Program-made: the position numbers and the translations under genes
Virus record (IMG/VR): IMGVR_UViG_2713896902_000004
Source of the DNA: a virus
Taxonomy: Duplodnaviria; Heunggongvirae; Uroviricota; Caudoviricetes
Strand: one strand, 5' to 3'
Length of the DNA stretch: 16,021 nt
Part shown: one piece after another, positions 1,013 to 16,021 of the stretch
How the letters are laid out: every line of letters starts with the position of its first letter
How positions within the stretch are numbered: the first letter of the stretch is position 1
The notes under the pieces: generated by a model
Seen by the model: only the letters and a program-made list of their open reading frames with translations
Told to the model about the DNA's origin: nothing
Databases searched by the model: none

Positions 1013-1072
1013 ATAAATTATATTATGAAAATAACATGGTTATTATGAGTAATATGGTAGTTTCATATAACT

Positions 1073-1630: not shown

Positions 1631-3098
1631 TAATATTTATTTGGACTGGTTTATATCGTACGCATTCCATTTTATCACCGCCGTCAACAAATGTGATTAC
1701 GCATCCAGCGGGGGCTGAAGTAGATGACTGAACTTCTGCTCCTAATTGTATGTTTTGTATATATCGAGCGTCAGATTGAGCTTTGGTATAAATGTTCACA
1801 GTGGTTGCTTTGCTGTTAGCAAGATCAAAAGCTGCCTTCACCGCGCTTGGTGTTGCCGCTTCCGTCGTACTTGTGCTGTTCGTTGCACTATTAAGCTTCA
1901 CAACTCCTTTTTGCGTCAGTGTGGCGTCGGGGATACCAGTGATTTGTCCCCAGGCGTGGGTATGACTTGCTGGTGCAGCCGCAATAGCCTTATCCATTGC
2001 CGCCTTCACCGCGCTCGGTGTCGCAGCTTCCGTTGTGCTGGTGCTGTTTGTGGTACTGTTAAGTTTCACAACTCCTTTTTGCGTCAGCGTGGCGTCGGGG
2101 ATAGCAGTGATTTGTCCCCAGGCGTGGGTATGGCTTGCTGGTGCAGCCGCAATAGCCTTATCCATTGCCGCCTTCACCGCGCTCGGTGTTGCAGCTTCCG
2201 TCGTGCTGGTGCTGTTTGTGGTACTGTTAAGTTTCACAATTCCTTTTTGCGTCAGCGTGGCGTCGGGGATACCAGTGATTTGTCCCCAGGCGTGGGTATG
2301 GCTTGCTGGTGCAGCCGCAGTAGCCTTATCCATTGCTGCCTTCACCGCGCTCGGTGTTGCAGCTTCCGTTGTGCTGGTGCTGTTTGTGGTACTGTTAAGC
2401 TTCACAATCCCTTTCTGCGCCAGCGTACCGTCAGGGATACTGGTTATCTGATTCCAGCCATGAGTATGACTGGTGGCGGCTTTGCTATTTGCCAGGTCAT
2501 ATGCGGTTTTTACTGCTTTTGGTGTGGCCGCTTTGGTTTCATCATCGCTATTAGTTGCATTACTCAGTTGCGTGAAACCTTTCTGCGTCAGTGTTGCATC
2601 AGGATGATTTCGTGATTGCTGATGTGCTTTCAGCGTGTCATCGACATATTCCCTGGTTGCCATAACAACTGAAGGATCTATCAACAGCGTCACCACATCC
2701 GCATTTGTCACTTCCATCACTGCGCGTATAACAATTTGCTTACTGGCACCTGCAGGTAATTGTGGTTTATAGGTTTCAGGGAATTTACCAATAGCGACCA
2801 GCGTGCCGTCGGTATCCAGCAACCCAACTTCGCGAACATACCAGCCTCCAACCTCTTCGGGAATAATCGCTTCTGCGATAACCCAGGCCGGATTATCTGG
2901 CGCAATTTTTAATGTATTGAGCTGACCACGCCAGACCTCATGGACTACTTTGGTCTGGATTTCTGTCGGTTCGATATATTTACCGTTGCCATCGCCAACT
3001 ACCATAGTTTGCAGACGGATCTGTTTTTGCTCCGCCAGTGCTGAGGCAATTTGGGTTTTGCCTGCAGCAGTTAATATTGTAAAAAATTCACTTGCCAT
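1602..3098 (-). CDS. Tail fibre protein (P2 gpH / Mu S-like N-terminus, repeat-containing shaft, divergent C-terminal tip)
   Basis: N-terminus MASEFFTILTAAGKTQIASALAEQKQIRLQTMVVGDGNG...NPAWVIAEAIIPEEVGGWYVREVGLLDTDGTLVAIGKFPETYKP matches the conserved gpH-type baseplate-attachment domain. Shaft has about 4 tandem ~56-aa repeats (SHTHAWGQITGIPDATLTQKGVVKLNSTTNSTSTTEAATPSAVKAAMDKA), the motif typical of side tail fibres. Confidence 0.9.
   Translation of the reverse strand: MASEFFTILTAAGKTQIASALAEQKQIRLQTMVVGDGNGKYIEPTEIQTKVVHEVWRGQLNTLKIAPDNPAWVIAEAIIPEEVGGWYVREVGLLDTDGTLVAIGKFPETYKPQLPAGASKQIVIRAVMEVTNADVVTLLIDPSVVMATREYVDDTLKAHQQSRNHPDATLTQKGFTQLSNATNSDDETKAATPKAVKTAYDLANSKAATSHTHGWNQITSIPDGTLAQKGIVKLNSTTNSTSTTEAATPSAVKAAMDKATAAAPASHTHAWGQITGIPDATLTQKGIVKLNSTTNSTSTTEAATPSAVKAAMDKAIAAAPASHTHAWGQITAIPDATLTQKGVVKLNSTTNSTSTTEAATPSAVKAAMDKAIAAAPASHTHAWGQITGIPDATLTQKGVVKLNSATNSTSTTEAATPSAVKAAFDLANSKATTVNIYTKAQSDARYIQNIQLGAEVQSSTSAPAGCVITFVDGGDKMECVRYKPVQININGAWRTISG
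1840..2530. repeat. Tandem direct repeats, about 168-bp unit, roughly 4 near-identical copies inside the fibre gene
   Basis: Near-identical 168-bp units begin at about 1861, 2029, 2197 and 2365, with more diverged copies on either side. In frame with the fibre ORF; they also create the spurious plus-strand shadow ORFs 1746..2615 and 2035..2451. Confidence 0.85.
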
Positions 3099-3100
3099 TA

Positions 3101-3832
3101 TTACTCCGGGTATACAGACATTATTTCGGTGCTCCAGTATCCTGTACCGATTTTCATCAGTTGGGATTGTGTAAGGCGATCAGGTCGATAAGGTAGTAGT
3201 TGGATATATTCCTCTACACAATAACCTGTCGCTAAAAATATTCTTGATGATTGGCTGATACTTTCTGCAACAGGAGGCAATACTGTAATGATTTCCCCTC
3301 CTTGCATGGCACTGCCAATAACTGGTATTGAGCTTTGATTAATAAGCCAAATAACAATACTTTCCAGTTTTGAACGAACATTTTTATATTCATGAATTAA
3401 TGTGATAAGTGCATTAAATTCATCTTCATTTAACCCTTTTTCCTCTAGTGTAATATCAACCTTAAAAAAATAAGCTTTCCCGCCATATTCAAACCATTCG
3501 GTAATAGTTCCAGGCAATGAGAGTATTTCCAGTACTCGCCGTACCGCCCAAACTGTTCCTTTATATTTATGTAACTCAATGGCTTGCTTAATTAACTCAC
3601 GCTTCTCTTGTTCATCAGTAGTAAATAACCAACCTTCCAGCCCCTGAACGTGGAATTGTTCTGCAAGGGCAGGTAATGCCGAAGCATCAACCAGGTCGAC
3701 CAGGTATATCATTAATGCCGTCAGATCGAGTTGCGCAAAACGTTCGGCGGCGATATTTGCCAGAGTTGAAAAACGCTCATCGCTGGCAAGCGGCGGCGGT
3801 GGCAGCAATTTATCCATCGCTGACTCCGGCAA
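3101..3832 (-). CDS. Baseplate protein gpI-like (P2 gpI / Mu gp48 family)
   Basis: Position between the gpJ-like gene and the fibre gene, size, and overlap with the gpJ gene (23 nt). Family assigned mainly by synteny and general resemblance. Confidence 0.7.
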   Translation of the reverse strand: MPESAMDKLLPPPPLASDERFSTLANIAAERFAQLDLTALMIYLVDLVDASALPALAEQFHVQGLEGWLFTTDEQEKRELIKQAIELHKYKGTVWAVRRVLEILSLPGTITEWFEYGGKAYFFKVDITLEEKGLNEDEFNALITLIHEYKNVRSKLESIVIWLINQSSIPVIGSAMQGGEIITVLPPVAESISQSSRIFLATGYCVEEYIQLLPYRPDRLTQSQLMKIGTGYWSTEIMSVYPE

Positions 3833-4925
3833 TCGTGACGTCTATTACAGTGCATTCCGCCCATTCATGCGCCTGCAAAATACGTTTTGTAGGCATGTTC
3901 AGCACAACGTCATAGACGCCATCGACTTGTAACACTTTGATTATCTGGTTTGGCACAATGTCCTGCCCCAGATGTTTCTGCCGCTGTTGCGTCCAGAGGC
4001 TAATCGCTTTACGCGCCGCAGCCAGTGTTGTCTCCTGATCGGCGGTGGTAAACAGCGTTAGCTGCGCACGAATTTCATACGGCACCCTAAGAGCACATTT
4101 CGCACTTACTTTGTCAGTCAGCGGACGTTTTTTCTCTTTACTCACTTCTTGTTCAATTTGCGCGAGTAGCTCGGTTCCCGGCAGACCATTCAGGGTTAGC
4201 GGGTAGAGCTCGACGCAGCCTTCTGGCAACCCTTCATCTGGCCCCAGTACTGCAACGTCAATAATTGACTGGCTAACCGAAAGTGTATGAAAGCGATATG
4301 CGCCATAGCTGCCGGCATTACTGAAGCTTTCTGGCGCCAGTTGTATACGCTGGCGTAGTGCATCATCGTTCTCTTCACCGCAACCGCCGGTTGTGGGAGT
4401 CAGATTAGTCACGTTGATATCGTAATAACCGATCCTGTCAACAAGGGCGCTAATCTGTGCAGGCTGCCAGCCATTGCCCTGTTCACCTGCTGCGAGGCTG
4501 GTGGCCGGAACGGCGATATGCAAACTCCTGGCCGGAAGCAGAACATCTTCATCGGTGGCGAACATCACGCTGTCAGAGGCACTGGCCCGCGTCCCCTGGG
4601 GAATCAGGATATTGCTGGTATACGCACTGACGACCGAAAACTGCAACGTCGTTTTTGCCGATTGTGCAGGTAAACGGTGAACACCCACCAGCTCCCCTAA
4701 ATAATCCAACATTGGTGCGCGGGAATACGTGACCAGGTTTTGTTTCGCCGCTTCCTGAATGGCGATGCGCACAAGGTTTTCACGATAGGCAAACAGGTCG
4801 ATGAGTAACCGTTCGGCCTGTGCCGGATAGAGTTTTTTACCGCTGGCATCTTCGTATTGCGCAATCATCTCGCTGGTAATTTGCGCAGGATCGCGGTCAA
4901 TAAAATCGGGTTCGGCTATCGCCAT
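3810..4925 (-). CDS. Baseplate wedge protein gpJ-like (Baseplate_J / T4 gp6-like)
   Basis: 371-aa ORF directly after the gpW-like gene with overlapping junction; sequence character typical of Baseplate_J proteins; conserved V-W-J-I-H-G order. Confidence 0.8.
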   Translation of the reverse strand: MAIAEPDFIDRDPAQITSEMIAQYEDASGKKLYPAQAERLLIDLFAYRENLVRIAIQEAAKQNLVTYSRAPMLDYLGELVGVHRLPAQSAKTTLQFSVVSAYTSNILIPQGTRASASDSVMFATDEDVLLPARSLHIAVPATSLAAGEQGNGWQPAQISALVDRIGYYDINVTNLTPTTGGCGEENDDALRQRIQLAPESFSNAGSYGAYRFHTLSVSQSIIDVAVLGPDEGLPEGCVELYPLTLNGLPGTELLAQIEQEVSKEKKRPLTDKVSAKCALRVPYEIRAQLTLFTTADQETTLAAARKAISLWTQQRQKHLGQDIVPNQIIKVLQVDGVYDVVLNMPTKRILQAHEWAECTVIDVTIAGVSDG

Positions 4926-5275
4926 AACACCTCCGTTGAGTTGATTACGCCGTCAGCGGCGCGCCATTGCACACGTAACGTCAGATGTTCACCGTCGATT
5001 ATCGGTGCTACCTTCAGCAACCGACATCGCGGTTCCCACTGGCGGATGGCTTCCACCGACTCCCGTACCACATGCGGGATTGCCCGCTCGATGGGGTAAT
5101 CGATGTAGTGCCACAAGTTGCTGCCAAACAGCGGTCTGTGGGGATCACTGCCGCGCGGCGTGCGCAGAATGATGTGTATTGCCTGGTGAATATCATCCAG
5201 TCCGCAGACGTATTCTTCAGGCCGCTGCAAGGCGGGTTGCCAGTGCAGCGTTGAGGGGCGTGTTTTTGTGTTCAT
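4916..5275 (-). CDS. Baseplate wedge protein gpW-like (GPW/gp25 family)
   Basis: 119 aa; ...DDIHQAIHIILRTPRGSDPHRPLFGSNLWHYIDYPIERAIPHVVRESVEAIRQWEPRCRLLKV... resembles the gp25/GPW family; sits between the V-like and J-like genes. Confidence 0.8.
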   Translation of the reverse strand: MNTKTRPSTLHWQPALQRPEEYVCGLDDIHQAIHIILRTPRGSDPHRPLFGSNLWHYIDYPIERAIPHVVRESVEAIRQWEPRCRLLKVAPIIDGEHLTLRVQWRAADGVINSTEVLWR

Positions 5276-5336
5276 GTGCTTATTTTCGCCCTGAACGGAC
5301 AGTGGGGATATTAAAGCGATTTAGAAAACTGATTGA

Positions 5337-5368
5337 TTAAAAAGAGAAAACCCGCCATCAGGCGGGTT
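5337..5368 (-). terminator. Intrinsic-terminator-like hairpin between the gpV-like and gpW-like genes
   Basis: On the minus strand, 4 nt after the gpV stop: AACCCGCC-TGAT-GGCGGGTT (8-bp GC-rich stem, 4-nt loop) followed by TTTTCTCTTTTT. Confidence 0.5.
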
Positions 5369-5373
5369 AAAAG

Positions 5374-6033
5374 CTAGTGTGAATGGTGATTTGAGTTACC
5401 ACCGCTATCCTGCAATGTGCCGCTGGCCTGAACGTTACCAATCACATTGACATTGCCAGTTATCGTGGCGGCGTTACCGATGCCTCCACTTCCTGCCATG
5501 CCACCCAGCCAGGTGAGTTTTTTCATTACTGTGACGTTACCAGTAAAGGTGCTCATGGGCGCATCTACCGTCACTGTCGCCGCTTTAATATCGACGGTAT
5601 CGGAAGTCACGGTGACCTGTTGGGCTTTAACCTCAACGTTGGGTGATGTCAGGTTAGTATGGTCAATAACCTCAATCACGATTTTCTCAATACCGCCGTT
5701 AATCGTAAGCTGGTGTGTGCTGCGGTCATATTCAAACGCTGCGCCATCAGAAAACTGGACGTAACGTTTATCTCGCGAGGCCACAGGCGCGGTGTCAACC
5801 GTAGAATAAACGGCCCCAAGTACCACGCCATCTTCGCCGTTGTCGTCCAGCAGAACTTCCACCTGCTCACCCATATCCGGTAGCCAGTAGTCTTTATTGT
5901 CCTGGGAATTACGTTGAAGTACCGCAAGCCAGTTACTCTTCAGATTGTCGCACTCTGGCAGTGTGACTCGCACCCGAACGCTGGTTTCGTCAATATCGCT
6001 GATAATCCCCGTTTGCCGGGTTACTCCCTTCAT
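5374..6033 (-). CDS. Baseplate central spike protein gpV-like (P2 gpV / Mu gp45 family)
   Basis: 219 aa; N-terminal OB-fold-like region (…NGEDGVVLGAVYS…) and a C-terminal Gly/Val/Asn-rich beta-helix-like region (GNVTVMKK…GNVNVIGNVQASGTL) typical of spike proteins; follows the gpD-like hub gene. Confidence 0.8.
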   Translation of the reverse strand: MKGVTRQTGIISDIDETSVRVRVTLPECDNLKSNWLAVLQRNSQDNKDYWLPDMGEQVEVLLDDNGEDGVVLGAVYSTVDTAPVASRDKRYVQFSDGAAFEYDRSTHQLTINGGIEKIVIEVIDHTNLTSPNVEVKAQQVTVTSDTVDIKAATVTVDAPMSTFTGNVTVMKKLTWLGGMAGSGGIGNAATITGNVNVIGNVQASGTLQDSGGNSNHHSH

Positions 6034-6042
6034 AGTGCCTCC

Positions 6043-7083
6043 TTACTGGCTGGTTGCTGGCCCGCGCGAAACGTCGATTTCAGTGGTATAGCCGCTGCGC
6101 ACAAAACTGTGAGTAGATTTATCAATCAGCCATTGTCCAGAAAGAATACCAAAATCAATGAGTTCGATTTTATTGCCTGCTGTCAGTTCCGGGCAGCCCA
6201 TCATCCTGAGTGTTCCGGTTTGCTGATATTCGTTGTGGCTGTCGAGTGCAGCGTTGGCCTTTGCCTGTGCCGCGCCAACATCCGTCGCCCGGCTGTTGAG
6301 TTTCAACGTGTCGGCACTGGTGCCGACTCCACGGGCTGACGGTTTTTGCTGGCTGTCGTGAGTGTAGATAACCAGTTCTTTTTTCTTACTATTTTGATGC
6401 TGTACGGTGGCGTTCTTGTAGATGCGATTAATGGTGTCTTTGAAGGTAAAGTGCGAAACCTCTTTACGGTCGATGGTTTTCACTGGCGCCAGGCAGCGTA
6501 GTGTCGGCAGATGTGAAAAAATCAGCTCTTTTGTCGTCACTTTCACGGCATAGCCATATTCGCTGGCCAGACGCTTGAGAAATCCAACATCGGTTTCGCC
6601 GTACTGTGTCACCCGGTCAATCGCCAGTGGCTCGATTTTGCCCACCAGCTTCAGACCGTGAGTTTGCGCGATACGACTGGCGATGGCCGAAAGCGTCGTT
6701 TCTTCAAAGCCCTGACTGTTACGGGTACGCAGCGCCTGATTGACGGAAGTGGCAATGCCATCAATATTTACCGTGGAAGGTGGTGCTGAAATATCAATTT
6801 TATCAATAACATACTGACCGCAATCGAGGAGCGTCTCCCCCTGATAACCCATATGTAGCGCCAGCGTATCGCCTTTGCCGGGATACCACTCTTTTATCCA
6901 ACGTCCATCGGTGTCATCCAGTGTAATGGCGATGGTATCTGACTCGTTTTTGATGCTGTCGTGGTAACTGATGCTGGTGACATAGGGCGTGATGTCATAA
7001 GTGATATCTTTATGCCCATACCAAAGGGTAAAAATGGGCGCGAGTGTGGCAAAGACGCCACCAGATACGCTTATCTCAGCCAT
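6043..7083 (-). CDS. Baseplate hub protein gpD-like (P2 late control gene D / Mu gp44 / VgrG-N family)
   Basis: 346 aa with the family character (…SDTIAITLDDTDGRW…PGKGDTLALHMGYQGETLLDCGQYVIDKIDISAPP…); conserved position after the gpX-like gene. Confidence 0.8.
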   Translation of the reverse strand: MAEISVSGGVFATLAPIFTLWYGHKDITYDITPYVTSISYHDSIKNESDTIAITLDDTDGRWIKEWYPGKGDTLALHMGYQGETLLDCGQYVIDKIDISAPPSTVNIDGIATSVNQALRTRNSQGFEETTLSAIASRIAQTHGLKLVGKIEPLAIDRVTQYGETDVGFLKRLASEYGYAVKVTTKELIFSHLPTLRCLAPVKTIDRKEVSHFTFKDTINRIYKNATVQHQNSKKKELVIYTHDSQQKPSARGVGTSADTLKLNSRATDVGAAQAKANAALDSHNEYQQTGTLRMMGCPELTAGNKIELIDFGILSGQWLIDKSTHSFVRSGYTTEIDVSRGPATSQ

Positions 7084-7283
7084 GGTGGTATCTCCGATAA
7101 GGTTTTGTTGACGGAAATGACCGGAATAATGAGTTGAATACCGGAAGGCAGTACCGGGTAAATGGCGACATGTGGATTGGCGGCGATGATGCGTTCATAA
7201 GCCAGCGCATCGCCGTAGTAATACCATGCCAGATTATCCCAGCGTTCGCCGTCGGTGGTGATATGTTCAAGGTATCGCATCAC
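7071..7283 (-). CDS. Tail protein X-like (P2 gpX, LysM-like baseplate protein)
   Basis: 70 aa; TTDGERWDNLAWYYYGDALAYERIIAANPHVAIYPVLPSGIQLIIP parallels the gpX pattern (T..GDTLD.I..RYYG…VL.ANP…LP.G..V.LP). ATGA overlap with the upstream gene. Confidence 0.7.
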   Translation of the reverse strand: MMRYLEHITTDGERWDNLAWYYYGDALAYERIIAANPHVAIYPVLPSGIQLIIPVISVNKTLSEIPPWLR

Positions 7284-8233
7284 CAGCTCCTCGTAATGGT
7301 CGCGGCAGCAAGCTGGCTCACTGCGGGAGTGGTTTGTTGTACCGTTGTTCGTGCCTGCTCAACCAACGTTGCGGCTTTATCGAACGTCGCTTCGGCGATG
7401 TCGTTGGTAATGTCGTCGAAAAGCGCCTGAGCATGGTCAACCAGCGTGCTGGCGTCTTTGGCGCAGTCCCGGATACCTGGCATGTTACCCAGTAAAGCGT
7501 TAATCTGCGCCGATAACGCTTTTGGGAGTCCTGCCAGCGTTTGCAGATCCATGGGCTGTTTAAACAGGGTTTCGATGGCGTCGATAGTCTTTTTCAACGA
7601 CGTAATTATCTTTTCACACTTTTCTTTTAACGCTTTGGCCTCTTTAACCAGTGCTTTCACTTTTGCCACCGTTTTTTTAATATCTTCAATGGCTTGAGTC
7701 AGCTCATCGAGCATCTCTTTGGCCTTACGCATACCTTCTTCAATGGCGTTCAATATCTGATCAAACCAGGACTCCACCATGTCTGGAAAATCGCTCGCCT
7801 TTTCGTCAATATTCGGGTCTTGGGTAGTAATTGCCGGGGGCAAGAGTGGATTTTTAGGATCACCGGTGTACTCCTGGAGCGACATTGTTCCGCTTTGAGC
7901 AATCACATTGCCCCAGGGATCGGTGTGCTGGTGGGTGGCGGTTAGCTCCGTAATCACAAACCAGCCGCGATAATCGCCATTGCCAAACACCAGAGCCATC
8001 GCTTTGTGGGCAAGCATGCCTTCACGCAGTCGATTCAGCTCTGTTGTGGGTTGGCAAAACTGGCTGTGCAAGGAAAATTCCAGTGCCAGCATATCCAGCT
8101 TATCGCCAATAAACTGCACGCCGGGTTTGCCTTCTATACGGGCATGTGTGGCGTAGTCCACGCCCATTGTGCTTTTAAAGCCGTCCCAGAATGTGACAAC
8201 CTTAAATTCAATCTCTCCTAAAACGGCATACAT
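7280..8233 (-). CDS. gpU-like tail/baseplate protein with a long alpha-helical, coiled-coil-like C-terminal extension
   Basis: The first ~120 aa loosely resemble P2 gpU-type tail proteins, and the gene sits in the gpU position (TMP-U-X-D). The C-terminal ~180 aa are rich in A/K/E/L heptad-like sequence. Start overlaps the TMP stop by 1 nt. Confidence 0.5.
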   Translation of the reverse strand: MYAVLGEIEFKVVTFWDGFKSTMGVDYATHARIEGKPGVQFIGDKLDMLALEFSLHSQFCQPTTELNRLREGMLAHKAMALVFGNGDYRGWFVITELTATHQHTDPWGNVIAQSGTMSLQEYTGDPKNPLLPPAITTQDPNIDEKASDFPDMVESWFDQILNAIEEGMRKAKEMLDELTQAIEDIKKTVAKVKALVKEAKALKEKCEKIITSLKKTIDAIETLFKQPMDLQTLAGLPKALSAQINALLGNMPGIRDCAKDASTLVDHAQALFDDITNDIAEATFDKAATLVEQARTTVQQTTPAVSQLAAATITRSW

Positions 8234-10608
8234 CAGGCATACCCCCGGCGCTGTTGTTGCGCCATTACGTCGTTAATCATTCTTTCCAGTTCGCGTTTAC
8301 TTATCGTCAACACGTTCTGAATGTCTTTAGTGGTGTTTTGTCCGTTACTCTGCACGGTAATTTGTGGCGAAAAATTCACCTGAACTTTTCCAGAGGAACG
8401 GGAGGGTAGCGTCGCCGGTTTGGTTACAGATTTACCAGGTAAAGAGGCCGATGCGGGTTTGGCTGCTGTATTTTTTGCCGCTGGTGTCGATGGCGACGTT
8501 GTCGTTTTACTGGATGGCGCGAGTTGTTTGCCCACAGGAGGCGTTAAAATCGCTCCGGCAACGCCTGGAACAACGGTCGTGGGGGAGATTGATGCGGTAT
8601 TCGTCGTGCTTGTAACAGCCGTAGCCGATCCTTCTGTGCTAATACCCATCGTGGTTTTTAGCCAGTCCGGTAAGGCGTTTTTGACCTGATCAATAATGCC
8701 TTTCAGAGCGGGGAAAGCATTCATTATGCCGTCAACCAGACTGCCCAGAAGATTGCTGCCGAACTCGCTAAAACTTGCAGGCATCTCGATACCAAACCAA
8801 TTCATCACACTGGAAAAGGCGCTGTAGAACAACTCCAGCGGCGACCAGTCGAGAATTAACCGGCAAATCCCTGCAATGCCGCCGTCAAAGGCCGTGGTGA
8901 TACGTTGCCAGATGGCGGAAAAGAATCTGGAGATAGGTTCCCAGTGGCGATAGATCAGATAAGCAGCGCCCGCAATCGCGGTGATGACCAGACCAATGGG
9001 ATTCATCAATAAAACTCTACCCAACCAGAAGACGGTCTGACCTGCCAGTTTCAATGCGCCAATCAGGCCACGGCCAAGCAGTTGCGTTAGCCATTTTGCG
9101 CCGTTATATAATGACTTAACCGCTGATAGCATCTTACTTGCCGCGCCTGTGAGCGTCAGACTTGCCCTGACTTTCAGGAAGATATCGACCAGACGAATAA
9201 ACGGCGAGGCGATGACGTTCGCGCCCAGCTTTAAAACATTCAGTGCGCCGTTAAACAGCCAAATCGCTCCGACGATTTTCGCAATGTTTTGCACCAGCGC
9301 CGGGTGTTCACGTAGCCAGGCGCTGAACTGGCGAATCACCGGAGTAAGGCTTTGCGCCAACTCGCCAATCAGCGGCATTAATTGCAAGCCAATGCTGAGC
9401 CATAAATCATTTAACGCCAGTTGTAACGTTTTAGTTTGTTCAATGGGCGAGGCCATCTGCACAGAAAAATCGTTGTCAATCATATTCTTACCGCTGTCTT
9501 GCATGGCGGAGGCTTTTAACTGGCGATACTCTTCCATATTCGCCAGCACAGGTGCCAGGAATTCCACTGTTTGCGCATCGCCGAACATTTCGCCCAGATT
9601 AAATTGCGTCACCATCGATTGCAGTGCGTTGCTGCGAGCAGATAAATCTTCAATTTGCATGGTGCGTTTGAAGGTGTCGAGGATCGCCGGATTCATCTTC
9701 TCAAGTTGCGTTTGCACGATATGAATCATGGCTTCGCTAACACCCATGCCGTTTTGCTGATGTTCAAGCAGAGAGCCTTGCAGATCGACGCCCTGGCTGA
9801 CGAACCAGTTATCGGTTTTTTTCGAAAAGATGGTTTGCAGAAAGTGGTCGAAATTCTCCGCCGCCACACTGGCGCTGGCACCATTTTTCATTGCGATCTG
9901 CATTGTGGCGGTCAGTTCAGCCATACCTTCTAAACCCTGTGCGCCAGTTTTAACTGCAAATTTGTCTATCCACTGCGCTTGCCCGGCAACGGTAGGCCCA
10001 CCGTTTTTGCTAATGCCGTACATCATGTTTTGCGCGGCGTGGAAATTTTCTGGCGCAATATTCAGTCGATCATGAGTCGCGAGCGCGGCATTCGCCCATG
10101 TTTCAGCACTTTCGCGCGTGGTGGTGGCTGCTTTGGCGATCTCCGGCATATAACGGTTGAGATCCTGCATCGACGACAAATTACCTTCGATTAGCACCTG
10201 GGCTGCGTTCTGTAAGGTGGTCTGCTGCTGGTTAAAATCCATACTCCAGTCGCGCAGATTAAGGCTGAGTGTCTCGCGGGTTGTATCATTCATCCCACCT
10301 TTGGTCGCCAAATTGACCATGTTGTCCTGAAACTCATACGGCAACTTCCAGTCAGGGACTTCAACATTGAATACTTTGCTAAATTGCCCGGCAAATGTTT
10401 GGGTTTTCTCCATCAGATCAGCGCGGTTTCGGCTATTTTCCTCCAGGCGGAGAGCGGAATCGGCAAGTTGCTGCGTTAGTTTGATTACTGCCGCTTGCTG
10501 AGAAGAGAGTGCTAACAATGTTCTGGCGTTGAGTGAGCCGTAACGGGCTATTGCCTGCGTCAACGTCTCATTACGCGTCTGAAGCTGGGTAATAATATCG
10601 TTGGCCAA
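8233..10608 (-). CDS. Tail tape measure protein
   Basis: 791 aa, largest gene of the module, directly after the chaperone gene; alpha-helical N-terminal half, several hydrophobic segments in the middle, Ser/Thr/Pro-rich low-complexity C-terminal region. Annotated start is TTG with AAGAGA upstream. Confidence 0.8.
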   Translation of the reverse strand: MANDIITQLQTRNETLTQAIARYGSLNARTLLALSSQQAAVIKLTQQLADSALRLEENSRNRADLMEKTQTFAGQFSKVFNVEVPDWKLPYEFQDNMVNLATKGGMNDTTRETLSLNLRDWSMDFNQQQTTLQNAAQVLIEGNLSSMQDLNRYMPEIAKAATTTRESAETWANAALATHDRLNIAPENFHAAQNMMYGISKNGGPTVAGQAQWIDKFAVKTGAQGLEGMAELTATMQIAMKNGASASVAAENFDHFLQTIFSKKTDNWFVSQGVDLQGSLLEHQQNGMGVSEAMIHIVQTQLEKMNPAILDTFKRTMQIEDLSARSNALQSMVTQFNLGEMFGDAQTVEFLAPVLANMEEYRQLKASAMQDSGKNMIDNDFSVQMASPIEQTKTLQLALNDLWLSIGLQLMPLIGELAQSLTPVIRQFSAWLREHPALVQNIAKIVGAIWLFNGALNVLKLGANVIASPFIRLVDIFLKVRASLTLTGAASKMLSAVKSLYNGAKWLTQLLGRGLIGALKLAGQTVFWLGRVLLMNPIGLVITAIAGAAYLIYRHWEPISRFFSAIWQRITTAFDGGIAGICRLILDWSPLELFYSAFSSVMNWFGIEMPASFSEFGSNLLGSLVDGIMNAFPALKGIIDQVKNALPDWLKTTMGISTEGSATAVTSTTNTASISPTTVVPGVAGAILTPPVGKQLAPSSKTTTSPSTPAAKNTAAKPASASLPGKSVTKPATLPSRSSGKVQVNFSPQITVQSNGQNTTKDIQNVLTISKRELERMINDVMAQQQRRGYA

Positions 10609-10708
10609 AATTGTTTCTCTTATAGATTGGTGATGGCCCGCTGGTTAGTTTTCTGAAAAATGGGCTGGGAAGAAATAAACCTGGCGAGCTTTGAAGAACT
10701 CGCAGACA

Positions 10709-10930
10709 TCAGGTCTGCGAGTCATATTCGATTTTTATTTGAGCGCTGGCTTCATCCAGCCAGTGACTAAAGTCATCTATCGTGAGCGAGTCAATCTCAC
10801 TGGGTGGAAAGCGAAACCATCTCGCCAGTAGCGCCATTGCCTGCCATAGCAAGGGGGGATTCTGTAGCCACGGTAAGCATGGATTGAAATCGTTTCTGCA
10901 ACGCCTGGTAATCCAGCAAATCCATTTCAG
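10709..10930 (-). other. Open +1-frame window overlapping the 3' end of the chaperone gene; candidate programmed-frameshift extension (gpE'-like)
   Basis: Relative to the chaperone frame, the +1 frame is open from 10930 to a TGA at 10709-10711, running about 29 codons past the chaperone stop (…FPPSEIDSLTIDDFSHWLDEASAQIKIEYDSQT). A C6 run (10853-10858; TCC CCC CTT in frame 0, CCC CCC TTG in +1) is a possible slip site. The -1 frame closes 8 codons after the chaperone stop. Confidence 0.35.
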
Positions 10931-11114
10931 CTAAATCTTCTGGTACCAGCCCGGTCATCGCTGCCATTAGCGGTTCATCCCATTCTTCCGGCTTTTCGCT
11001 GACCCGGCGTGCATTACGCATATCTTTGACTTTCAGGCGACGTAATTGTAGCGTGTCGATATTATTTCCTGCTGCCGACGTAAAGGGAAACTGTAAGATA
11101 TAATGCTCTTTCAT
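10797..11114 (-). CDS. Tail assembly chaperone (P2 gpE-like)
   Basis: 105 aa between the tube and tape-measure genes; …LQLRRLKVKDMRNARRV…LMAAMTGLVPEDLAEMDLLDYQALQKRF… resembles the gpE family; AAGGA Shine-Dalgarno upstream. Confidence 0.7.
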   Translation of the reverse strand: MKEHYILQFPFTSAAGNNIDTLQLRRLKVKDMRNARRVSEKPEEWDEPLMAAMTGLVPEDLAEMDLLDYQALQKRFQSMLTVATESPLAMAGNGATGEMVSLSTQ

Positions 11115-11140
11115 TTTGTATCCTTATTTATTTTTCGGAG

Positions 11141-11160
11141 TTCGGGGCCGTAGCCCCGAA
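11141..11160 (-). other. GC-rich intercistronic stem-loop between the tube and chaperone genes
   Basis: TTCGGGGC-CGTA-GCCCCGAA, perfect 8-bp stem with 4-nt loop, starting 4 nt after the tube stop; no U-tract follows on the minus strand. Confidence 0.4.
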
Positions 11161-11164
11161 TAAC

Positions 11165-11689
11165 TTAGCCACCGATGTTATTGCGATAGGTACTTAATTG
11201 ATCCACGCCGTTAACGCGGAAAATATTCGCCATATAATCCAGTTCAAGCAGCGTTTCACCATCGACTACTTGTTTAATATAAGTGCAGCCAAAGGCGCTG
11301 CTGAATTCCGGGTTTTCATTCTGTTTAAATGTGCCCAGTGGATTTTTTTTAAACATCACGGTTAAATGTGTGACTAACGCTAATTGATTCGCTTTCCCCT
11401 GAGAGTTATAACAATCGATACTGGAGCGACACTGTAATGCTACAGCCTGCCACGGGTTTGCCGTTTTACGCATTACGTCCTGGTAAAAGGAGTTCCATTT
11501 AATTTCCCCCTCCAGTTTATCGAAACCAGCCGGGAGTTCTATTTTACCCACCATGCCCAGTGCTTTATGTTCCTGCATAATTAAACTGACATCTGGCAAT
11601 TTAATTTCTGTTGCACGGCCTAAAAGATTATTACCATCGAGATAAATATTGGCGTTGGTAATACGGTTAATTTGAATTTTTCCAGCCAT
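11165..11689 (-). CDS. Tail tube protein (P2 FII-like)
   Basis: 174 aa immediately after the sheath gene with a 1-nt overlap; size and sequence character of contractile-tail tube proteins. Confidence 0.8.
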   Translation of the reverse strand: MAGKIQINRITNANIYLDGNNLLGRATEIKLPDVSLIMQEHKALGMVGKIELPAGFDKLEGEIKWNSFYQDVMRKTANPWQAVALQCRSSIDCYNSQGKANQLALVTHLTVMFKKNPLGTFKQNENPEFSSAFGCTYIKQVVDGETLLELDYMANIFRVNGVDQLSTYRNNIGG

Positions 11690-13116
11690 TAGCGATTGCT
11701 CTCCAGAGAGACTAAATATTCAGAGGTAATTTCAGTTTCAAACGTCAGACGTTCCAGCGGCGGCGGTGGGGTAAATTTATAGCTGAGCAATAAATGCCCG
11801 GCACTGAGTTCAGCCGGTGAATTTCGCGCCGGATCGTACCAGCACTCAAAGCCAAGCAGTGCGCCGTCGGCAATCAGTTTTCGGCCCCAGGTATTTACCG
11901 ATTCGGTCAGCGCGTCAATCAGTGCCTGATTGATCGGCATATCAATATACTGTTGACTGAAATAACGGATTGACTCATTAATTACATCGCCTGTCCGGCG
12001 AACGTTTTCAAAGTTACGCATATGAGTCACGGTTGGCCATGCCGCTGTGCGGTTGCCCCACAGGCGCAGACCAGAACCATAACTATTGAAAATAGTGGTA
12101 ATACCGTTTTCGTTGAGCTGATTCACTTCGCTTTGTGGATCATCAATCATTGCGGAAAGCGAACGTTCGATACCGGTAATACCCTGAATTTCCTGGTTTG
12201 AGTTGCTCCACCAGAAACCTTTTTCGAGGTCTACTTTGGCACGTAGCCCGGCAGCGCGCGAAGAGAGAGGTTCAAGAATTTCCTGGTTAGTGATGCCATC
12301 GTAAACTTTGACGTGTGGGTAGCATAAACGTGCACGATCAGAGCTGGTATTGAAGTTGATTGCGCCTTGCGAACCGCGTCCAGCCAATACCTGCTGGAAT
12401 GTAGTCCCAATTGGGGCATCAATGTAGGTAATCGCACCGAGTTTTTCCGCTTGTGCAATCAGCTCGGTAGTCACTGATTTTTGCGTACAAAAAACGGGTG
12501 CCAGCAGAATTTTGGCGTAGAAACCATACAAGTTATAAGTGTCCTGAAGGAGCCTCATCCCCGTGCGATCGCCTGCGGTATTAACGGCCCCGATAATATC
12601 GGCTGCGGTGACCTTTGTAGGGTCAACATAGGTATAAGTCGCGTAAACCTTTGCTCCTGCCGCAATTTCAGTTCCTGTACGGGTAATAACGCCGTCAGCG
12701 GCATTAACGCTGTATGATGTATTTTTGTATGTAGTGGAACTGATACTTGCTCTTAGCGTTACCGAACTTACCCCCGGATGAGTTAATTTAGCTTTATCGT
12801 CACTATTGAACGTAATGGTTTCATTGGTAATGTGTAGTCCATGTTTTACTGGATCCAGCACATTAATTACCACCACTGTACCGGCACCGTGATCATAAAT
12901 CGCCTTCAGCGCCTGCGGGATCGTAAAGTTAGCCTGAGTCGATCCAAACTGTGCCGCGTCACTTTCAGAAAGGCACAGCGTCGGTTGGTTTACCGGGCCA
13001 CAGGGAGCGGTACCGATTAAAGCGATTACAGCAGATTTTACTGCTTTTACCGGACGCGGGCCGGTTTCAATTTCAATGGTTTCTACACCGTGCAGATAAT
13101 TAGCTGCCATGTACAA
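11689..13116 (-). CDS. Tail sheath protein
   Basis: 475 aa; C-terminal conserved sheath motif (…GSGLRLWGNRTAAWP…); followed by tube gene with overlapping stop/start. Confidence 0.9.
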   Translation of the reverse strand: MYMAANYLHGVETIEIETGPRPVKAVKSAVIALIGTAPCGPVNQPTLCLSESDAAQFGSTQANFTIPQALKAIYDHGAGTVVVINVLDPVKHGLHITNETITFNSDDKAKLTHPGVSSVTLRASISSTTYKNTSYSVNAADGVITRTGTEIAAGAKVYATYTYVDPTKVTAADIIGAVNTAGDRTGMRLLQDTYNLYGFYAKILLAPVFCTQKSVTTELIAQAEKLGAITYIDAPIGTTFQQVLAGRGSQGAINFNTSSDRARLCYPHVKVYDGITNQEILEPLSSRAAGLRAKVDLEKGFWWSNSNQEIQGITGIERSLSAMIDDPQSEVNQLNENGITTIFNSYGSGLRLWGNRTAAWPTVTHMRNFENVRRTGDVINESIRYFSQQYIDMPINQALIDALTESVNTWGRKLIADGALLGFECWYDPARNSPAELSAGHLLLSYKFTPPPPLERLTFETEITSEYLVSLESNR

Positions 13117-13297
13117 TTTCCTCTACGTTATTTTGTTCTTCCTGGGGAATGATGAGAATCAAGTGATTTCGGGCAATCATGGTCATAACCCACTCATTGT
13201 CTTCTGGCAGATCAATTTCACTGTTCGGCCATAATAAGATTTCTTGACCGTCGGCAAGGGTGACGCCGCTTGCCGGACCGTTGTAGATATATTTCAT
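13100..13297 (-). CDS. Small conserved phage protein preceding the sheath gene (Mu gp38/DUF2635-like by position)
   Basis: 65 aa; ATGA overlap with the upstream gene and 17-nt overlap with the sheath start; assignment by position and size only. Confidence 0.35.
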   Translation of the reverse strand: MKYIYNGPASGVTLADGQEILLWPNSEIDLPEDNEWVMTMIARNHLILIIPQEEQNNVEEIVHGS

Positions 13298-13749
13298 TCA
13301 GTTTCCTCGTAATTAACTTCAGTAAGCAGGGGAAGATCCGTGCTGTCCTGTTCAGCGATAAACAGCGAGCTGGTCGCCATTTCCAGGATGTAGCGGCAGA
13401 AACCGTCGCTCTCACCCGTATTAATTTCTTTTTCAAGCCAAATAAGATGATCGCAATCAGGAGGCTGAAGGCCTCCCAATGCGCTGCGTATGTGATCAAG
13501 TGCGTTTAACGCATCACAATTTTTGCCAACAATAACGGTGGCGGTTAAGCGGAGTATTTGCTGTTGTACAATGGCATCACTACTTTCGGGCGTGGTGAAG
13601 ACAGAACCGCTATAATTAATAATCACCGTAATCTGTTGTGTCTGTGGAATATATTTTTGGGCATCCGTAGATGAAATGAATATGTCCATTTCAGGATGCC
13701 GATCACGTAATCTGACCACGACATAATTCATTACAGATAAAATTTTCAT
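13294..13749 (-). CDS. Putative tail completion/terminator protein (Mu gp37-like by position)
   Basis: 151 aa, first gene of the tail block after the terminator at 13855-13891; coupled to the next gene by an ATGA overlap; assignment by synteny. Confidence 0.4.
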   Translation of the reverse strand: MKILSVMNYVVVRLRDRHPEMDIFISSTDAQKYIPQTQQITVIINYSGSVFTTPESSDAIVQQQILRLTATVIVGKNCDALNALDHIRSALGGLQPPDCDHLIWLEKEINTGESDGFCRYILEMATSSLFIAEQDSTDLPLLTEVNYEETE

Positions 13750-13854
13750 ATGAGGTGTACCTTAATTACCGCTCACTTCGTTATCGTTGAAATGTATTCT
13801 GAAGCAGTGAGAGTGAAGAATCTTTTAATGTGATTTAGAGAAAAAATTGAATGG

Positions 13855-13891
13855 TTATAAAAAATCCCCACACTTACGTAAAGGTGGGGAT
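13855..13891 (-). terminator. Intrinsic terminator after the lysis cassette
   Basis: On the minus strand, 4 nt after the stop of the 104-aa gene: ATCCCCAC…GTGGGGAT (8-bp stem with a partly self-pairing 12-nt loop) followed by TTTTTTATAA. Confidence 0.55.
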
Positions 13892-13895
13892 GTAT

Positions 13896-14210
13896 TTAAT
13901 AACTGCCACGTTGTAATAACTCTATTTTGCTATATAAGGCATCCAGCTTTGCTTCTAATACTGCTTGTCCACGAAGATAATCCTCTCTGCGGACATAATA
14001 CAGTGGAAGTTCGGCACGAAATTCGAGAAATTCTCTTTCCAGTTTCGACCAGCTTGTTTCTGATTCCCTGCGGGCATTTTCCAGGGACTCAAAACGCTCA
14101 TTAAGTCTTTTTTCAATTTGCGCTAACAGCAATTTTCCGGCAGCAAACATTAATCCAACGAATGAAAGCATAAAGGAGATCACTTCCCAAAAATCGATAC
14201 TGAGTTTCAT
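13896..14210 (-). CDS. Membrane-anchored coiled-coil protein, possible i-spanin (Rz-like) or lysis accessory protein
   Basis: 104 aa; N-terminal hydrophobic helix (ISFMLSFVGLMFAAGKLLLAQI) followed by a charged helical region; immediately after the transglycosylase gene. Confidence 0.4.
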   Translation of the reverse strand: MKLSIDFWEVISFMLSFVGLMFAAGKLLLAQIEKRLNERFESLENARRESETSWSKLEREFLEFRAELPLYYVRREDYLRGQAVLEAKLDALYSKIELLQRGSY

Positions 14211-14222
14211 CGGCCCCTCTGA

Positions 14223-14828
14223 TTAGTGAAGACAGCTTGCCTGTCCCCAGAGTAAGTAGCGGGCGGCGTGTTGATAGAGAATCATCTTCGGATAGTGACG
14301 ATTTTCTCGCCAGTTTGCGGCGCTGCGCCCGGCGTTGACTTGCTCAACATGACCAAACCAGATGGCGGCATTTAACCCTTTTGTTGTCGCCAGTTTTTTA
14401 TCCCGGTTAATCCAACCCTGACCACCGTTATAGGCGCTTAGAGTAAACGCCATACGTTGACAATCATTTTTTGCAGAGATGTTGTTCCATAAATGCTGGT
14501 CGTACTGTACCAACGCCCGGATTGCCCAGGTTGGGTTATACGGTTTGTTTTCATGTAGCTGTGGATACAGTTGGCTTATCCATGTCGCTGTGGCAGGCAT
14601 AAATTGCGCCATACCTTGTGCGCCAACGGGGGAACGTACCATTGGCTGCCAGGCGGACTCCTGGTGTAATTGCCCGGCAAAGTCAGCCACAGGAGCGTTC
14701 AGTCCCCAGACTTCTCGGGCGGTACGAATCAATTCATTTCTCCATGCCAGAGAGGCTTGTGGTGGTTCAGACGCATTAAGCGGGAAAAGAACGAAAATAA
14801 TCATAGGCGCGATATATTTTAGCCACAT
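14223..14828 (-). CDS. Lytic transglycosylase (SLT-domain endolysin candidate) with N-terminal signal peptide
   Basis: SLT catalytic motifs: …QLHQESAWQ… (catalytic Glu-Ser), …GAQGMAQFMPATA…, …AYNGGQGW…. The longest ORF runs to 14927 but the likely start is the ATG at 14826-14828 (MWLKYIAPMIIFVLFPLNA, Sec-type signal peptide), 2 nt after the upstream stop. Confidence 0.85.
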   Translation of the reverse strand: MWLKYIAPMIIFVLFPLNASEPPQASLAWRNELIRTAREVWGLNAPVADFAGQLHQESAWQPMVRSPVGAQGMAQFMPATATWISQLYPQLHENKPYNPTWAIRALVQYDQHLWNNISAKNDCQRMAFTLSAYNGGQGWINRDKKLATTKGLNAAIWFGHVEQVNAGRSAANWRENRHYPKMILYQHAARYLLWGQASCLH

Positions 14829-14830
14829 CA

Positions 14831-15118
14831 CTATAGCCCTAACGCGACGGAAAGGCAGACTGCAGCCACGATGATGGCGCGACGAATCATTGCCGCTGCG
14901 TAGCAACGCGGTTCCTTCCTGGGGCAAAAAAAGTCAGGCCGTGCCCAGGGGAACAAACTACGATCGAGCCAGTATCCCAGCACTGCGGAAAGTGAAACCA
15001 GGCTTAGTTTATAAATGACGACCGGAATTTGTGCTGAAGATGTCCAGCCGATCAATGCAATCAGAGCAATGGCTGCAGCCAGCCAACCGGAAAGACGGGG
15101 AAAAGTGATTTTTTTCAT
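14831..15118 (-). CDS. Holin-like small membrane protein
   Basis: 95 aa with 2-3 predicted transmembrane helices; strong AGGAG 8 nt upstream of the ATG; first gene of the lysis cassette, tightly coupled to the transglycosylase gene. Function by position only. Confidence 0.4.
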   Translation of the reverse strand: MKKITFPRLSGWLAAAIALIALIGWTSSAQIPVVIYKLSLVSLSAVLGYWLDRSLFPWARPDFFCPRKEPRCYAAAMIRRAIIVAAVCLSVALGL

Positions 15119-15434
15119 ACGATATCTCCTGATAAGTGAGATACCAGTGTCTGCTTATCTCTTTGCTGAAGAATGAAAAAAGCTTTAATAAATAACTTTA
15201 AAAAATGTGTTCTCTTCGAATTAACATGTTCGCCAATTAATCTCCCAACTCAAAATAGAGAACTAAGGATAAAATGGCTGCCAGTTAGATAAATCCTGCG
15301 TTATGTGTAATGAAGGGGATGACATATTGCAATCATGGTCGTTACTTATTTGATTTTTAAAGTTTGTTTAAAAAAATCCTCGACTGTGAGGGAAACGAGC
15401 TTTTTGAAAAGTAGGCGATAAAAATGATAAATAG

Positions 15435-15454
15435 CACTGTATATGTATACAGTA
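15435..15454. promoter_or_regulatory. LexA (SOS) box
   Basis: CACTGTATATGTATACAGTA matches the E. coli LexA consensus TACTGTATATATATACAGTA at 18/20 with intact CTGT-N8-ACAG. Overlaps a possible minus-strand promoter (-35 TTTACA, 16-nt spacer, -10 TACAGT) and lies just downstream of a possible plus-strand promoter (-35 TTGAAA 15404-15409). Confidence 0.6.
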
Positions 15455-15673
15455 TCGTGTAAAATGGCACTCCTGTTGATAAGACATGTAATGAAAATAA
15501 TATATTTGTTTTGTGAATTTATAATTCGTTTTAATTTTTATTGCATATACATTGTGATTATTTATTTGCGTGTTGAATGTATTGAAAAGCAGTAATTGCA
15601 CCAACTTAGCGGATATCCGTGGTGTAACTCACATCAGAGTCCATACAGGGTGCAAGATATATGGAGATGAAAA

Positions 15674-16021
15674 ATGATACAAAAAGCAAAAGAGATGACC
15701 CGGACACCGGAGATCATTAACGATTTGGCGTTTCATGCTTCGCAAGTTCTGATTGAGAGCATCAATCTGGATAGCTCATCTGCGGAAAATGTTGGCTATG
15801 CCATTGCCGATCGCATGATGCGAAACTGGGGCGGACAAAGCATTTATTTTCCAAAAGGAATCGCCAGGCGAGCCTCGGAGCGGGACTATCAAATCTATAG
15901 CGAGTGCGATGGGCGCAACTACGCCGAATTAGCGAAGAAATATAATCTGACGCTGCAATGGATTTATAAGATAGTAAAACGCGTGCATACAGAAAAGCAG
16001 CAACAGCACCGTATGCAGTAG
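15674..16021 (+). CDS. Mor/C-family transcriptional activator (Mu middle-operon-regulator-like)
   Basis: 115 aa; …NWGGQSIYFPKGIARRASERDYQIYSECDGRNYAELAKKYNLTLQWIYKIVKRV… parallels the Mor C-terminal region (GGQ.Y.P.G…RD..I…GRN..EL…Y..T….YK..R) including the HTH; GGAG 7 nt upstream of the ATG; divergent from the lysis/tail block. Confidence 0.65.
   Translation: MIQKAKEMTRTPEIINDLAFHASQVLIESINLDSSSAENVGYAIADRMMRNWGGQSIYFPKGIARRASERDYQIYSECDGRNYAELAKKYNLTLQWIYKIVKRVHTEKQQQHRMQ

Follow-up and report, generated by a model that had tools for sequence, protein, structure and literature searches.

The DNA analysed here, 16,021 nucleotides in length and referred to throughout as the window, is by its gene content an R-type tailocin of Escherichia albertii, a domesticated tail module of BcepMu-like ('Mu-type') phages. 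The gene of its Mor-family activator, mor, is preceded at positions 15435-15454 by a near-consensus LexA box that is very probably a working LexA operator. The regulatory scheme that we consider probable is a cascade in which mor is under LexA repression and, once DNA damage lifts it, Mor switches on the late promoters for tail production and lysis. The lysis and tail genes lie behind three BcepMu-type late promoters of their own, which makes this cascade the best model for the locus.

A tail module without an early region

The contractile-tail and lysis gene set expected of an R-type tailocin is complete in the window. All of these genes lie on the minus strand, and mor alone faces the other way. 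The genes and the two intrinsic terminators that separate the operons are as follows.

1073..5275, minus strand: baseplate proteins W, J and I, tail fibre and fibre assembly protein (Pfam)
5339..5368, minus strand: intrinsic terminator after gene V, AACCCGCC-TGAT-GGCGGGTT followed by a T-run (from the sequence)
5374..13749, minus strand: Gp37, gp38-like protein, sheath, tube, tail assembly chaperone, tape measure, U, X, D and V (Pfam)
13859..13889, minus strand: intrinsic terminator after the lysis cassette, CCCCACCTTTACGTAAGTGTGGGG followed by a T-run, conserved in E. coli and Salmonella
13896..14210, minus strand: membrane protein, annotated 'membrane protein' in E. coli, at the position of the BcepMu Rz-like spanin gene
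14223..14828, minus strand: SLT-type endolysin of 201 aa, gene call from locus L007 (Pfam SLT, E = 4.2e-14)
14831..15118, minus strand: holin (Pfam Holin_2-3, E = 6.6e-26)
15674..16021, plus strand: mor, Mor/C-family late transcription activator of 115 aa (Pfam Mor, PF08765, E = 1.2e-37)

The derivation from a BcepMu-like phage is visible in both sequence and gene order. The sheath is 70% identical to BcepMu gp39, the gp38-like protein encoded between the Gp37 and sheath genes has 65 aa, and the order of the lysis and tail genes agrees with that of BcepMu gp21-24 and gp37-52. Set against the BcepMu map, the element corresponds to the late region after loss of the packaging and head genes gp25-gp36 and of the whole early region gp02-gp20 with its repressor, and this deletion pattern has left mor and the holin gene as divergent neighbours. 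A Pfam search over the window found no head, packaging, replication, integrase or early genes and no regulator besides Mor, and the window contains no open reading frame for an HTH/S24 repressor. In the E. albertii source genome mor is directly followed by lysC and then by pgi, so that no repressor gene is adjacent on that side either. A RecA-cleavable repressor linked to the activator, of the PrtR/PrtN or RdgA/RdgB kind, is thus missing from the window.

The assignment of the activator rests on Pfam and on solved Mor/C structures, both of which place its sequence in the Mor/C family. The Pfam Mor alignment spans profile positions 2-105 of 107, and the product matches PDB entry 1rr7 (Mu Mor) at 2.7e-9 and Mu C (9l0x) at 2.2e-5. 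It is 48% identical to BcepMu gp01, a 'late transcriptional activator', and equally 48% identical to phiE255 gp32, which is annotated 'RdgB'.

The insertion site lies between yjbD and lysC, flanks that are also seen in E. coli strain GF130, and 197 of 5426 complete E. coli genomes (∼4%) carry the element at the same chromosomal site. The Salmonella counterpart, STM4196-STM4219, occupies this site as well but is interrupted at the W promoter by a gtr operon, and an orphan mor persists in Salmonella lineages without tail genes. A locus with mor and the box was also recovered from Phytobacter, Dryocola and Superficieibacter; for Phytobacter, alone among these three genera, divergent holin and lysC neighbours could be recognized from the sizes and positions of open reading frames. 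A protein search with Gp37 returned close relatives only and no Pectobacterium carotovoricin locus. The ST131 'tailocin' (PMC9205054) was set aside as a different element, a P2-like prophage. A literature search found no description of the regulation of this locus, of an E. albertii tailocin or of a Mor/BcepMu-type tailocin.

A LexA box of near-consensus sequence

The original prediction described a near-consensus LexA box with an intact core in a 555-bp AT-rich region between divergent Mor-like and holin-like genes. Both the box and its setting hold: the spacer at 15119-15673 is 555 bp long, its GC content is 32.3% against 46.7% for the window, and its flanks are the Holin_2-3 family gene (minus strand) and the Mor family gene (plus strand) listed above, each identified by a Pfam match. 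The box itself is listed below.

15435..15454, no strand: candidate LexA operator (SOS box) CACTGTATATGTATACAGTA, 18/20 to consensus, unique in the window, HI-like score 3.1

Compared with the LexA consensus TACTGTATATATATACAGTA, the box differs only at positions 1 and 11, and its CTGT-N8-ACAG core is unbroken. No second CTGT-N8-ACAG occurs across the 16 kb window. When the 16 kb were scanned for the consensus with up to three mismatches, the box was the sole match, and none of 200 dinucleotide shuffles contained any match.

The strength of the site was gauged with an HI-like score, for which lower values are better. The matrix behind it derives from an ad hoc set of 27 E. coli operators and differs from the one published by Lewis et al., so that the score serves as a relative yardstick only. 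On this yardstick the box, at 3.1, is better than the sulA (3.9) and recA (4.9) operators as entered in the set and ranks sixth best against the 27 operators, which range from 0.9 to 9.7. Scoring against background had been proposed with the original prediction; with the same ad hoc matrix, the runner-up within the window reaches 14.25, and 2000 shuffles of the AT-rich spacer yielded nothing better than 7.07. A LexA-like site at 15575, GAATGTATTGAAAAGCAGTA, was rejected as an operator, its score of 15.3 lying beyond the functional range.

Conservation of the box across genera

IMG/VR was scanned with a Mor alignment, which yielded 80 loci, 26 of tailocin type and 54 of phage type, and in each locus the 700 nt preceding mor were scored, with the matrix as the sole criterion. 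A divergent holin gene lies 418-659 nt upstream of mor in every one of the 26 tailocin-type loci. A strong box (score 1.9-5.8) is present 239-311 nt upstream of the mor ATG in 23 of these 26 loci, which come from several enterobacterial genera. A strong LexA box is absent from all 54 phage-type mor loci, in which the best score is 14.3 upstream of mor and 11.5 anywhere; gemA lies directly upstream of mor in 45 of these loci. Among the BcepMu-like phages, too, neither the surroundings of mor nor the loci fetched contain a LexA box. The box was evidently gained at the domestication of the phage module.

The 23 tailocin-type boxes comprise 17 variants, which vary at positions 1, 2, 7, 9-12, 14 and 19, and CTGT and ACAG are kept in all 23, although the boxes were found by score alone. 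Variation is thus confined to positions that LexA tolerates while the CTGT and ACAG arms are kept, the pattern expected of a selected LexA operator. In an alignment of the spacer that spans seven genera, with a mean identity of 57%, only three conserved islands stand out: the box together with GTGTAAAATG, a holin-proximal block of 24 nt, and the ribosome-binding site of mor. Judged from the alignment and the ad hoc matrix, the box is under clear purifying selection and has the score of a high-affinity site. Since the box is real, scores as a high-affinity type and is under purifying selection, SOS control of the element is well supported.

Conservation of the box is not universal. It is missing from three of the 26 tailocin-type loci and from the Enterobacter-like loci L013 and L014, and in 11 E. 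coli genomes an ISL3-family element is inserted exactly at its centre; strain AR_0013, for instance, has ISEc53 within the box. From these box-less and interrupted loci it follows that the box is dispensable for keeping intact open reading frames.

The predicted mor promoter

The sequence on the mor side of the box suggests a promoter that the box would overlap. Two features were assigned to it.

15417..15434, plus strand: A-rich tract, possibly UP-element-like, directly 5' of the box in all orthologues
15460..15465, plus strand: predicted -10 hexamer TAAAAT of the mor promoter, assigned by conservation

With TAAAAT as the -10, the predicted mor start falls at about 15472 and the box at about -37 to -18, a placement based on conservation and on a rearrangement found in loci L039-L041. 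The element TAAAATGG, read towards mor, adjoins the box in every box-bearing lineage and sits 5 nt downstream of it in most. In L039-L041 it lies 6-7 nt upstream of the box, which would then span about +1 to +20, a position from which LexA could still shut off rightward transcription. The box-less Enterobacter-like L013 retains TAAAATGG. Across the seven genera TGTAAA[A/G]TG is invariant, including its final T and G (15465-15466). The predicted -35 of mor is poor (CTGTAT or TGTATA).

The distance of 220 bp between the box and the mor ATG would give the transcript a long leader of ∼200 nt. RNAalifold applied to nine sequences detected no conserved structure in this leader. An SOS-induced small hydrophobic leader peptide was also considered and rejected, as the open reading frames of the leader are not conserved between genera. 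Two plus-strand copies of the late-promoter motif described below, at 15189 and 15358, might have indicated autoregulation of mor; they were rejected because neither has a conserved -10 at 21 nt downstream. Remnants of BcepMu or PhiKM early genes were sought in the spacer by blastx and blastn, and none were found.

Late promoters of the lysis and tail genes

The lysis and tail promoters are, by motif and geometry, of the late, activator-dependent type. Their features are listed below.

5282..5323, minus strand: late promoter of the baseplate/fibre operon, TAAATCGCTTTAATA-21 nt-GAAAAT (motif and geometry)
13796..13837, minus strand: late promoter of the Gp37-sheath-tube operon, TAAATCACATTAAAA-21 nt-CAGAAT (motif and geometry common to 12 others; conserved in four taxa)
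15146..15151, minus strand: predicted -10-like hexamer of the lysis promoter, GACACT, with GATACT or CATACT in orthologues (position and type conserved in six taxa)
15173..15207, minus strand: holin-upstream block with two tandem late-motif-like copies, a putative Mor site (24-nt block nearly invariant in seven genera)
15186-15200, minus strand: late-motif-like copy TAAAG-TTAT-TTATTA in this block
15173-15187, minus strand: late-motif-like copy TAAAG-CTTT-TTTCAT in this block

The common architecture consists of TAAA(G/T)-N4-TTAAWA, exactly 21 nt and an nAnnnT hexamer, and was found in all 13 instances examined, taken from the window, E. coli, Salmonella, BcepMu and PhiKM. In BcepMu and in the E. 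coli Bcepmuvirus PhiKM, it stands ahead of the holin, head and baseplate operons. The motif places a putative activator site at about -48 to -34, and there is no -35 element. In Mu, the element bound by Mor spans 16 bp and is centred at -43.5 (PMC4390567), and the C-dependent late promoters have a -10 and lack a -35 (PMC2582627). The promoters described here thus have the -10, the absent -35 and the upstream site of Mor/C target promoters, and the mor product is the presumed ligand of that site.

In the spacers ahead of gp37 and W, an intrinsic terminator comes first and TAAAT-N4-TTAA(A/T)A follows. These two canonical late promoters are identical base for base between E. albertii and E. coli and recognizable in BcepMu; upstream of W, E. 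albertii and BcepMu have the same core, GCTTTAATATCCCC. In the lysis promoter the canonical geometry is altered: a degenerate copy of the motif occupies the canonical position, and another copy lies 13 nt upstream of that one. Its hexamer is of the same type as the late -10 hexamers of BcepMu and PhiKM, and the spacing of 31 nt between the holin-upstream block and this hexamer is fixed, with no indels in six taxa.

None of the three late promoters is associated with a LexA site of its own, as no LexA-like site near them scores below 14. The nearest of the three, the predicted lysis promoter, has the LexA box at 15435-15454 ∼290 nt upstream, and the colicin-type arrangement, in which a LexA box overlaps a structural or lysis promoter, is not found here.

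A probable cascade from LexA through Mor

These features can be joined into the following model. In an undamaged cell, LexA would occupy 15435-15454, overlapping the -35/spacer region of the mor promoter, and mor would be off. Upon DNA damage, RecA would become active, LexA would cleave itself, and mor would be transcribed with its leader of ∼200 nt. Mor would then switch on the three -35-less late promoters, upstream of the holin gene, gp37 and gene W, after which tails would be assembled and the producer cell lysed. In such a scheme, host LexA would replace the deleted phage early circuit of repressor, transposase and GemA. Binding by LexA, the exact promoter and start of mor, the dependence of the late promoters on Mor and the production of particles are all predictions of the model. 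Several features weigh against it: the poor -35 and long leader predicted for mor, the promoter-like sequence on the opposite strand of the box, the deviating lysis promoter, and the loci that keep their genes intact although the box is missing or interrupted.

The original prediction had seen in the box a direct SOS control of particle production. SOS control is upheld by the conserved, high-scoring box; directness is not, given the three late promoters that the particle genes have for themselves. With the box on the mor side and the lysis and tail promoters separate from it, control of the particle is most likely indirect, via Mor.

Published expression data from Salmonella bear on both steps of this cascade. 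In RNA-seq of S. Typhimurium ATCC 14028, STM14_5073 (348 bp, plus strand), the presumed mor orthologue, was up 4.08-fold with nalidixic acid (PMC8072944, Dataset S1). None of the genes STM14_5042 to STM14_5072 is in the list of genes induced at least 2-fold by nalidixic acid (PMC8072944, Dataset S1), so that the second step of the cascade is not seen in this dataset. As support for SOS induction of mor, the Salmonella RNA-seq is weak, because 1091 genes are 'up' in the same nalidixic acid dataset and STM14_5073 is missing from Table 1 of induced genes with a FIMO-detected box (PMC8072944). In an S. Infantis record, the box falls within a small annotated open reading frame, which may explain the omission of STM14_5073 from the box table.

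The same data provide the starting point for another reading, which we regard as unlikely. In it mor is SOS-induced from a true operator, but Mor no longer drives the tail and lysis genes, or does not do so alone. The cluster would then be silent or would await some additional signal, such as relief of H-NS silencing of the AT-rich region or a threshold level of Mor, and induction of mor alone would yield no particles. The 4-fold rise of Salmonella mor with no tail gene up at least 2-fold fits such a reading, as do the spacer GC content of 32%, the orphan mor genes left in Salmonella lineages after tail-gene loss and the non-canonical lysis promoter. However, the Salmonella copy is disrupted by the gtr operon at the W promoter. 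E. albertii and E. coli both retain every lysis and tail open reading frame intact, and the two canonical late promoters do not differ by a single base between these species and are still recognizable in BcepMu; intact reading frames and conserved late promoters together argue for continued selection on Mor-dependent expression.

Direction of control

The original prediction allowed the box to repress a leftward promoter, a rightward promoter or both. A consensus promoter scan over the box returned a single candidate, which reads leftward, with a -35 TTTACA at 15463-15458, a 16-nt spacer and a -10 TACAGT at 15441-15436 and a match at 9 of 12 positions. Both hexamers are kept wherever the box and TGTAAA are kept. 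At tisB/istR, divergent transcripts are under the control of one LexA box, which offers a precedent. Both tisB and istR are listed as LexA-regulated (PMC8072944). On this basis LexA might directly repress a leftward promoter that drives the holin/lysis/tail block or a short RNA, instead of or besides mor, a reading that we consider distinctly unlikely.

The conservation of the leftward hexamers is a matter of necessity, since the -10 falls within the box and TTTACA is the rightward TGTAAA seen from the opposite strand. The invariant T and G at 15465-15466 would have no role in a leftward -35. Loci L039-L041 have no TGTAAAATG downstream of the box, and in them the leftward arrangement is lost but the box is kept. 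The holin ATG is 317 nt away and stands behind its own conserved late-type promoter. A leftward small RNA or terminator was examined and rejected: the hairpins in minus-strand 15430-15355 and in its orthologues are weak and unconserved (z -1.5 to +1), and Rfam matched nothing in 15000-15800. In Salmonella, mor is in the nalidixic-acid-induced list and the lysis and tail genes are not. The comparative evidence therefore favours the rightward promoter, that of mor, as the only target of the box, and LexA probably does not directly repress the lysis/tail block. Of the directions first proposed, the rightward one is thus favoured, by the adjacent TAAAATGG, the separate late promoters and the Salmonella induced list, and the leftward one is disfavoured.

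A combined arrangement can also be envisaged, in which the single LexA operator occludes back-to-back promoters, that of mor and the leftward TTTACA-16-TACAGT, and acts as a commitment gate. This we hold to be very unlikely. If it were true, SOS would trigger the activator together with a Mor-independent leftward RNA, for example one with a regulatory role or one that provides weak, early expression of the lysis genes; this RNA would enter the conserved block at 15350-15406 or the lysis genes. Combined with the two-site, non-canonical lysis promoter, such a gate would be a possible timer that delays lysis relative to tail assembly.

It is extremely improbable that the palindrome is unused by LexA, as a chance product of the AT-rich spacer, a relic operator of the ancestral phage repressor or an insertion hotspot: the ISL3-family insertions at its exact centre in 11 E. 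coli genomes and the lineages that persist without it would fit, but shuffled spacers never came nearer than 7.07 to its score of 3.1, its variation across genera is of the LexA type only, in BcepMu-like phages neither the vicinity of mor nor the fetched loci contain such a site, and the element has no repressor gene.

Comparison with known systems

The favoured cascade, from LexA through mor to the late promoters, shares parts with several known circuits and differs from each of them. The closest functional parallel is the control of carotovoricin and pectin lyase in Pectobacterium (RecA to RdgA to RdgB), which is likewise induced by DNA damage and likewise ends in a Mor-family activator. RdgB is said to have been recognized as homologous to Mor by Liu et al. 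in 1994. In Pectobacterium, a cleavable repressor, RdgA, stands between RecA and the activator, whereas here there is none and a consensus LexA box lies on the predicted promoter of the activator. Carotovoricin has been described as a Mu-type tailocin whose cluster has no internal repressor (PMC13566846). The reference given there for 'LexA' control of carotovoricin is a paper on rdg genetics, with no demonstrated LexA operator (PMC13566846).

The R- and F-pyocins of Pseudomonas (RecA, PrtR, PrtN and P-boxes) resemble the present locus in that DNA damage derepresses a single activator gene, whose product switches on a set of tail and lysis promoters with a common motif. In the pyocins, the repressor is PrtR, a dedicated LexA-like/cI-like protein encoded beside prtN, whereas here host LexA is the predicted repressor. 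PrtN is also not a Mor/C protein, whereas the tailocin activator and its late promoters are inherited from a BcepMu-like phage. The cascade of phage Mu and BcepMu itself provides the homologous activator, the -35-less late promoters and the activator site at about -48 to -34. In the phages, however, mor follows gemA in an early/middle operon and has no LexA site, whereas tailocin mor has its own predicted LexA-gated promoter.

Direct placement of LexA on a gene that commits the cell to bacteriocin or phage production and lysis is known from the colicins, from 186 tum and from the Gifsy antirepressors. The tum gene of phage 186 is a LexA-repressed switch gene. In the colicins, the boxes lie on the toxin/lysis promoter itself, whereas the tailocin box lies on the activator promoter. 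Tum and the Gifsy antirepressors inactivate a phage repressor, whereas the predicted LexA target of the tailocin is a positive late activator and no phage repressor is present. Among the LexA targets compiled in PMC8072944 are the Gifsy dinI-like gene and further genes of prophages. Relative to all of these systems, what would be new is host LexA acting directly on the promoter of a Mor-type activator, with no dedicated repressor.

Biological significance

The natural variants of the locus, with an insertion element in the operator, without the box or reduced to an orphan mor, are ready-made controls for studies of this circuit. The published Salmonella SOS list omits the STM4196-4219 locus despite the induction of its activator in the same paper's data (PMC8072944). 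If the cascade is confirmed, a suicidal tailocin would become part of the core SOS regulon in E. albertii, in Salmonella (STM4196-4219) and in the ∼4% of complete E. coli genomes that carry the element, and SOS-inducing antibiotics such as quinolones would be predicted to trigger tailocin release and lysis. The locus would also represent a minimal route from phage to bacteriocin, in which the head and early genes are dropped, the late activator and its promoters are kept, and a LexA operator is added.

A late-promoter family in the tailocin and two phages

A single late-promoter family is common to the tailocin and the phages BcepMu and PhiKM. The motif TAAA(G/T)-N4-TTAAWA is followed, after exactly 21 nt, by an nAnnnT hexamer in all 13 of the instances examined. 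Predicted members, each consisting of motif, 21-nt spacer and hexamer, include the following.

Window 13796-13837 and 5282-5323, minus strand: predicted late promoters, preceding gp37 and W
Locus L019, 11486 and 18813: predicted late promoters
Locus L022, 5042: predicted late promoter

At the tail gene W, only 6 nt separate the end of the -10-like hexamer from the ATG, so that a nearly leaderless W mRNA would result.

Conserved blocks in the spacer upstream of mor

The predicted leader of the activator gene mor carries a block, ATGTATTG...AGTAATTGCACC (window 15577-15602), that is conserved in every genus, also in those lineages that have no LexA box. As a LexA site the block is implausible (score 15.3); no conserved ORF is present there, and the block lies outside any conserved RNA structure. 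A second block (window 15350-15406), consisting of TTGATTTTTAAAGTTTGTTTAAAAA and then GTGAGGGAAACGA with a T-run, is kept in five to six lineages and is not conserved in Superficieibacter. Within this second block, the plus strand holds a copy of the late-promoter motif that lacks a -10 element at the canonical distance.

Salmonella versions and the left end of the window

In S. Infantis, the gtrABC O-antigen glucosylation operon (equivalent to LT2 STM4204-4206) sits at the W promoter, between the genes V and W. Further Salmonella lineages, as well as a single metagenome contig, have lost the tail cluster entirely and keep an orphan mor, truncated in some cases, beside lysC; at the locus checked, L020, the LexA box is gone too.

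L002 7320-10473, L020 800-1215 and L012 2597-4249: gtrABC-insertion and orphan-mor loci

The S. Infantis mor orthologue has a predicted LexA box, AACTGTATATATATACAGTA, with a single mismatch. The S. Typhimurium ATCC 14028 gene STM14_5073, probably the mor orthologue, is missing from the published list of the Salmonella SOS regulon (PMC8072944 Table 1); Dataset S1 of the same paper records a 4.08-fold increase with nalidixic acid.

Beyond the fibre assembly gene, window 1-1072 is AT-rich and contains only unconserved small ORFs and a glycosyltransferase fragment. This end resembles cargo in decay or DNA from the flank.

Window 572-832, minus strand: glycosyltransferase fragment (86 aa), Glyco_trans_1_4

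Displacement, loss and interruption of the predicted LexA box

One lineage (L039-L041) has its predicted LexA box, ATCTGTATATTTATACAGCA, just downstream of TAAAATGG rather than just upstream. The predicted operator has shifted across the predicted -10 element and still adjoins it.

L040 2720-2760: example of the box/-10 rearrangement

In Enterobacter-like versions (L013/L014 3700-3800; L044, L047 and L048), mor, lysis and tail genes are intact, the LexA box is gone and the holin-adjacent block has diverged. Regulation in these versions has either been rewired or is in decay.

In 11 complete E. coli genomes, the predicted box is interrupted at its exact centre by an ISL3-like ISEc53 transposase gene and a ClbS/DfsB-family gene. 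The insertion is bounded by a duplication of the box's central 8 bp, ATGTACAT, with one copy at each junction.

L015 (E. coli AR_0013) 3790-3850 and 5690-5720: ISEc53 insertion junctions, equivalent to window 15435-15454

These strains are putative natural operator knock-outs.
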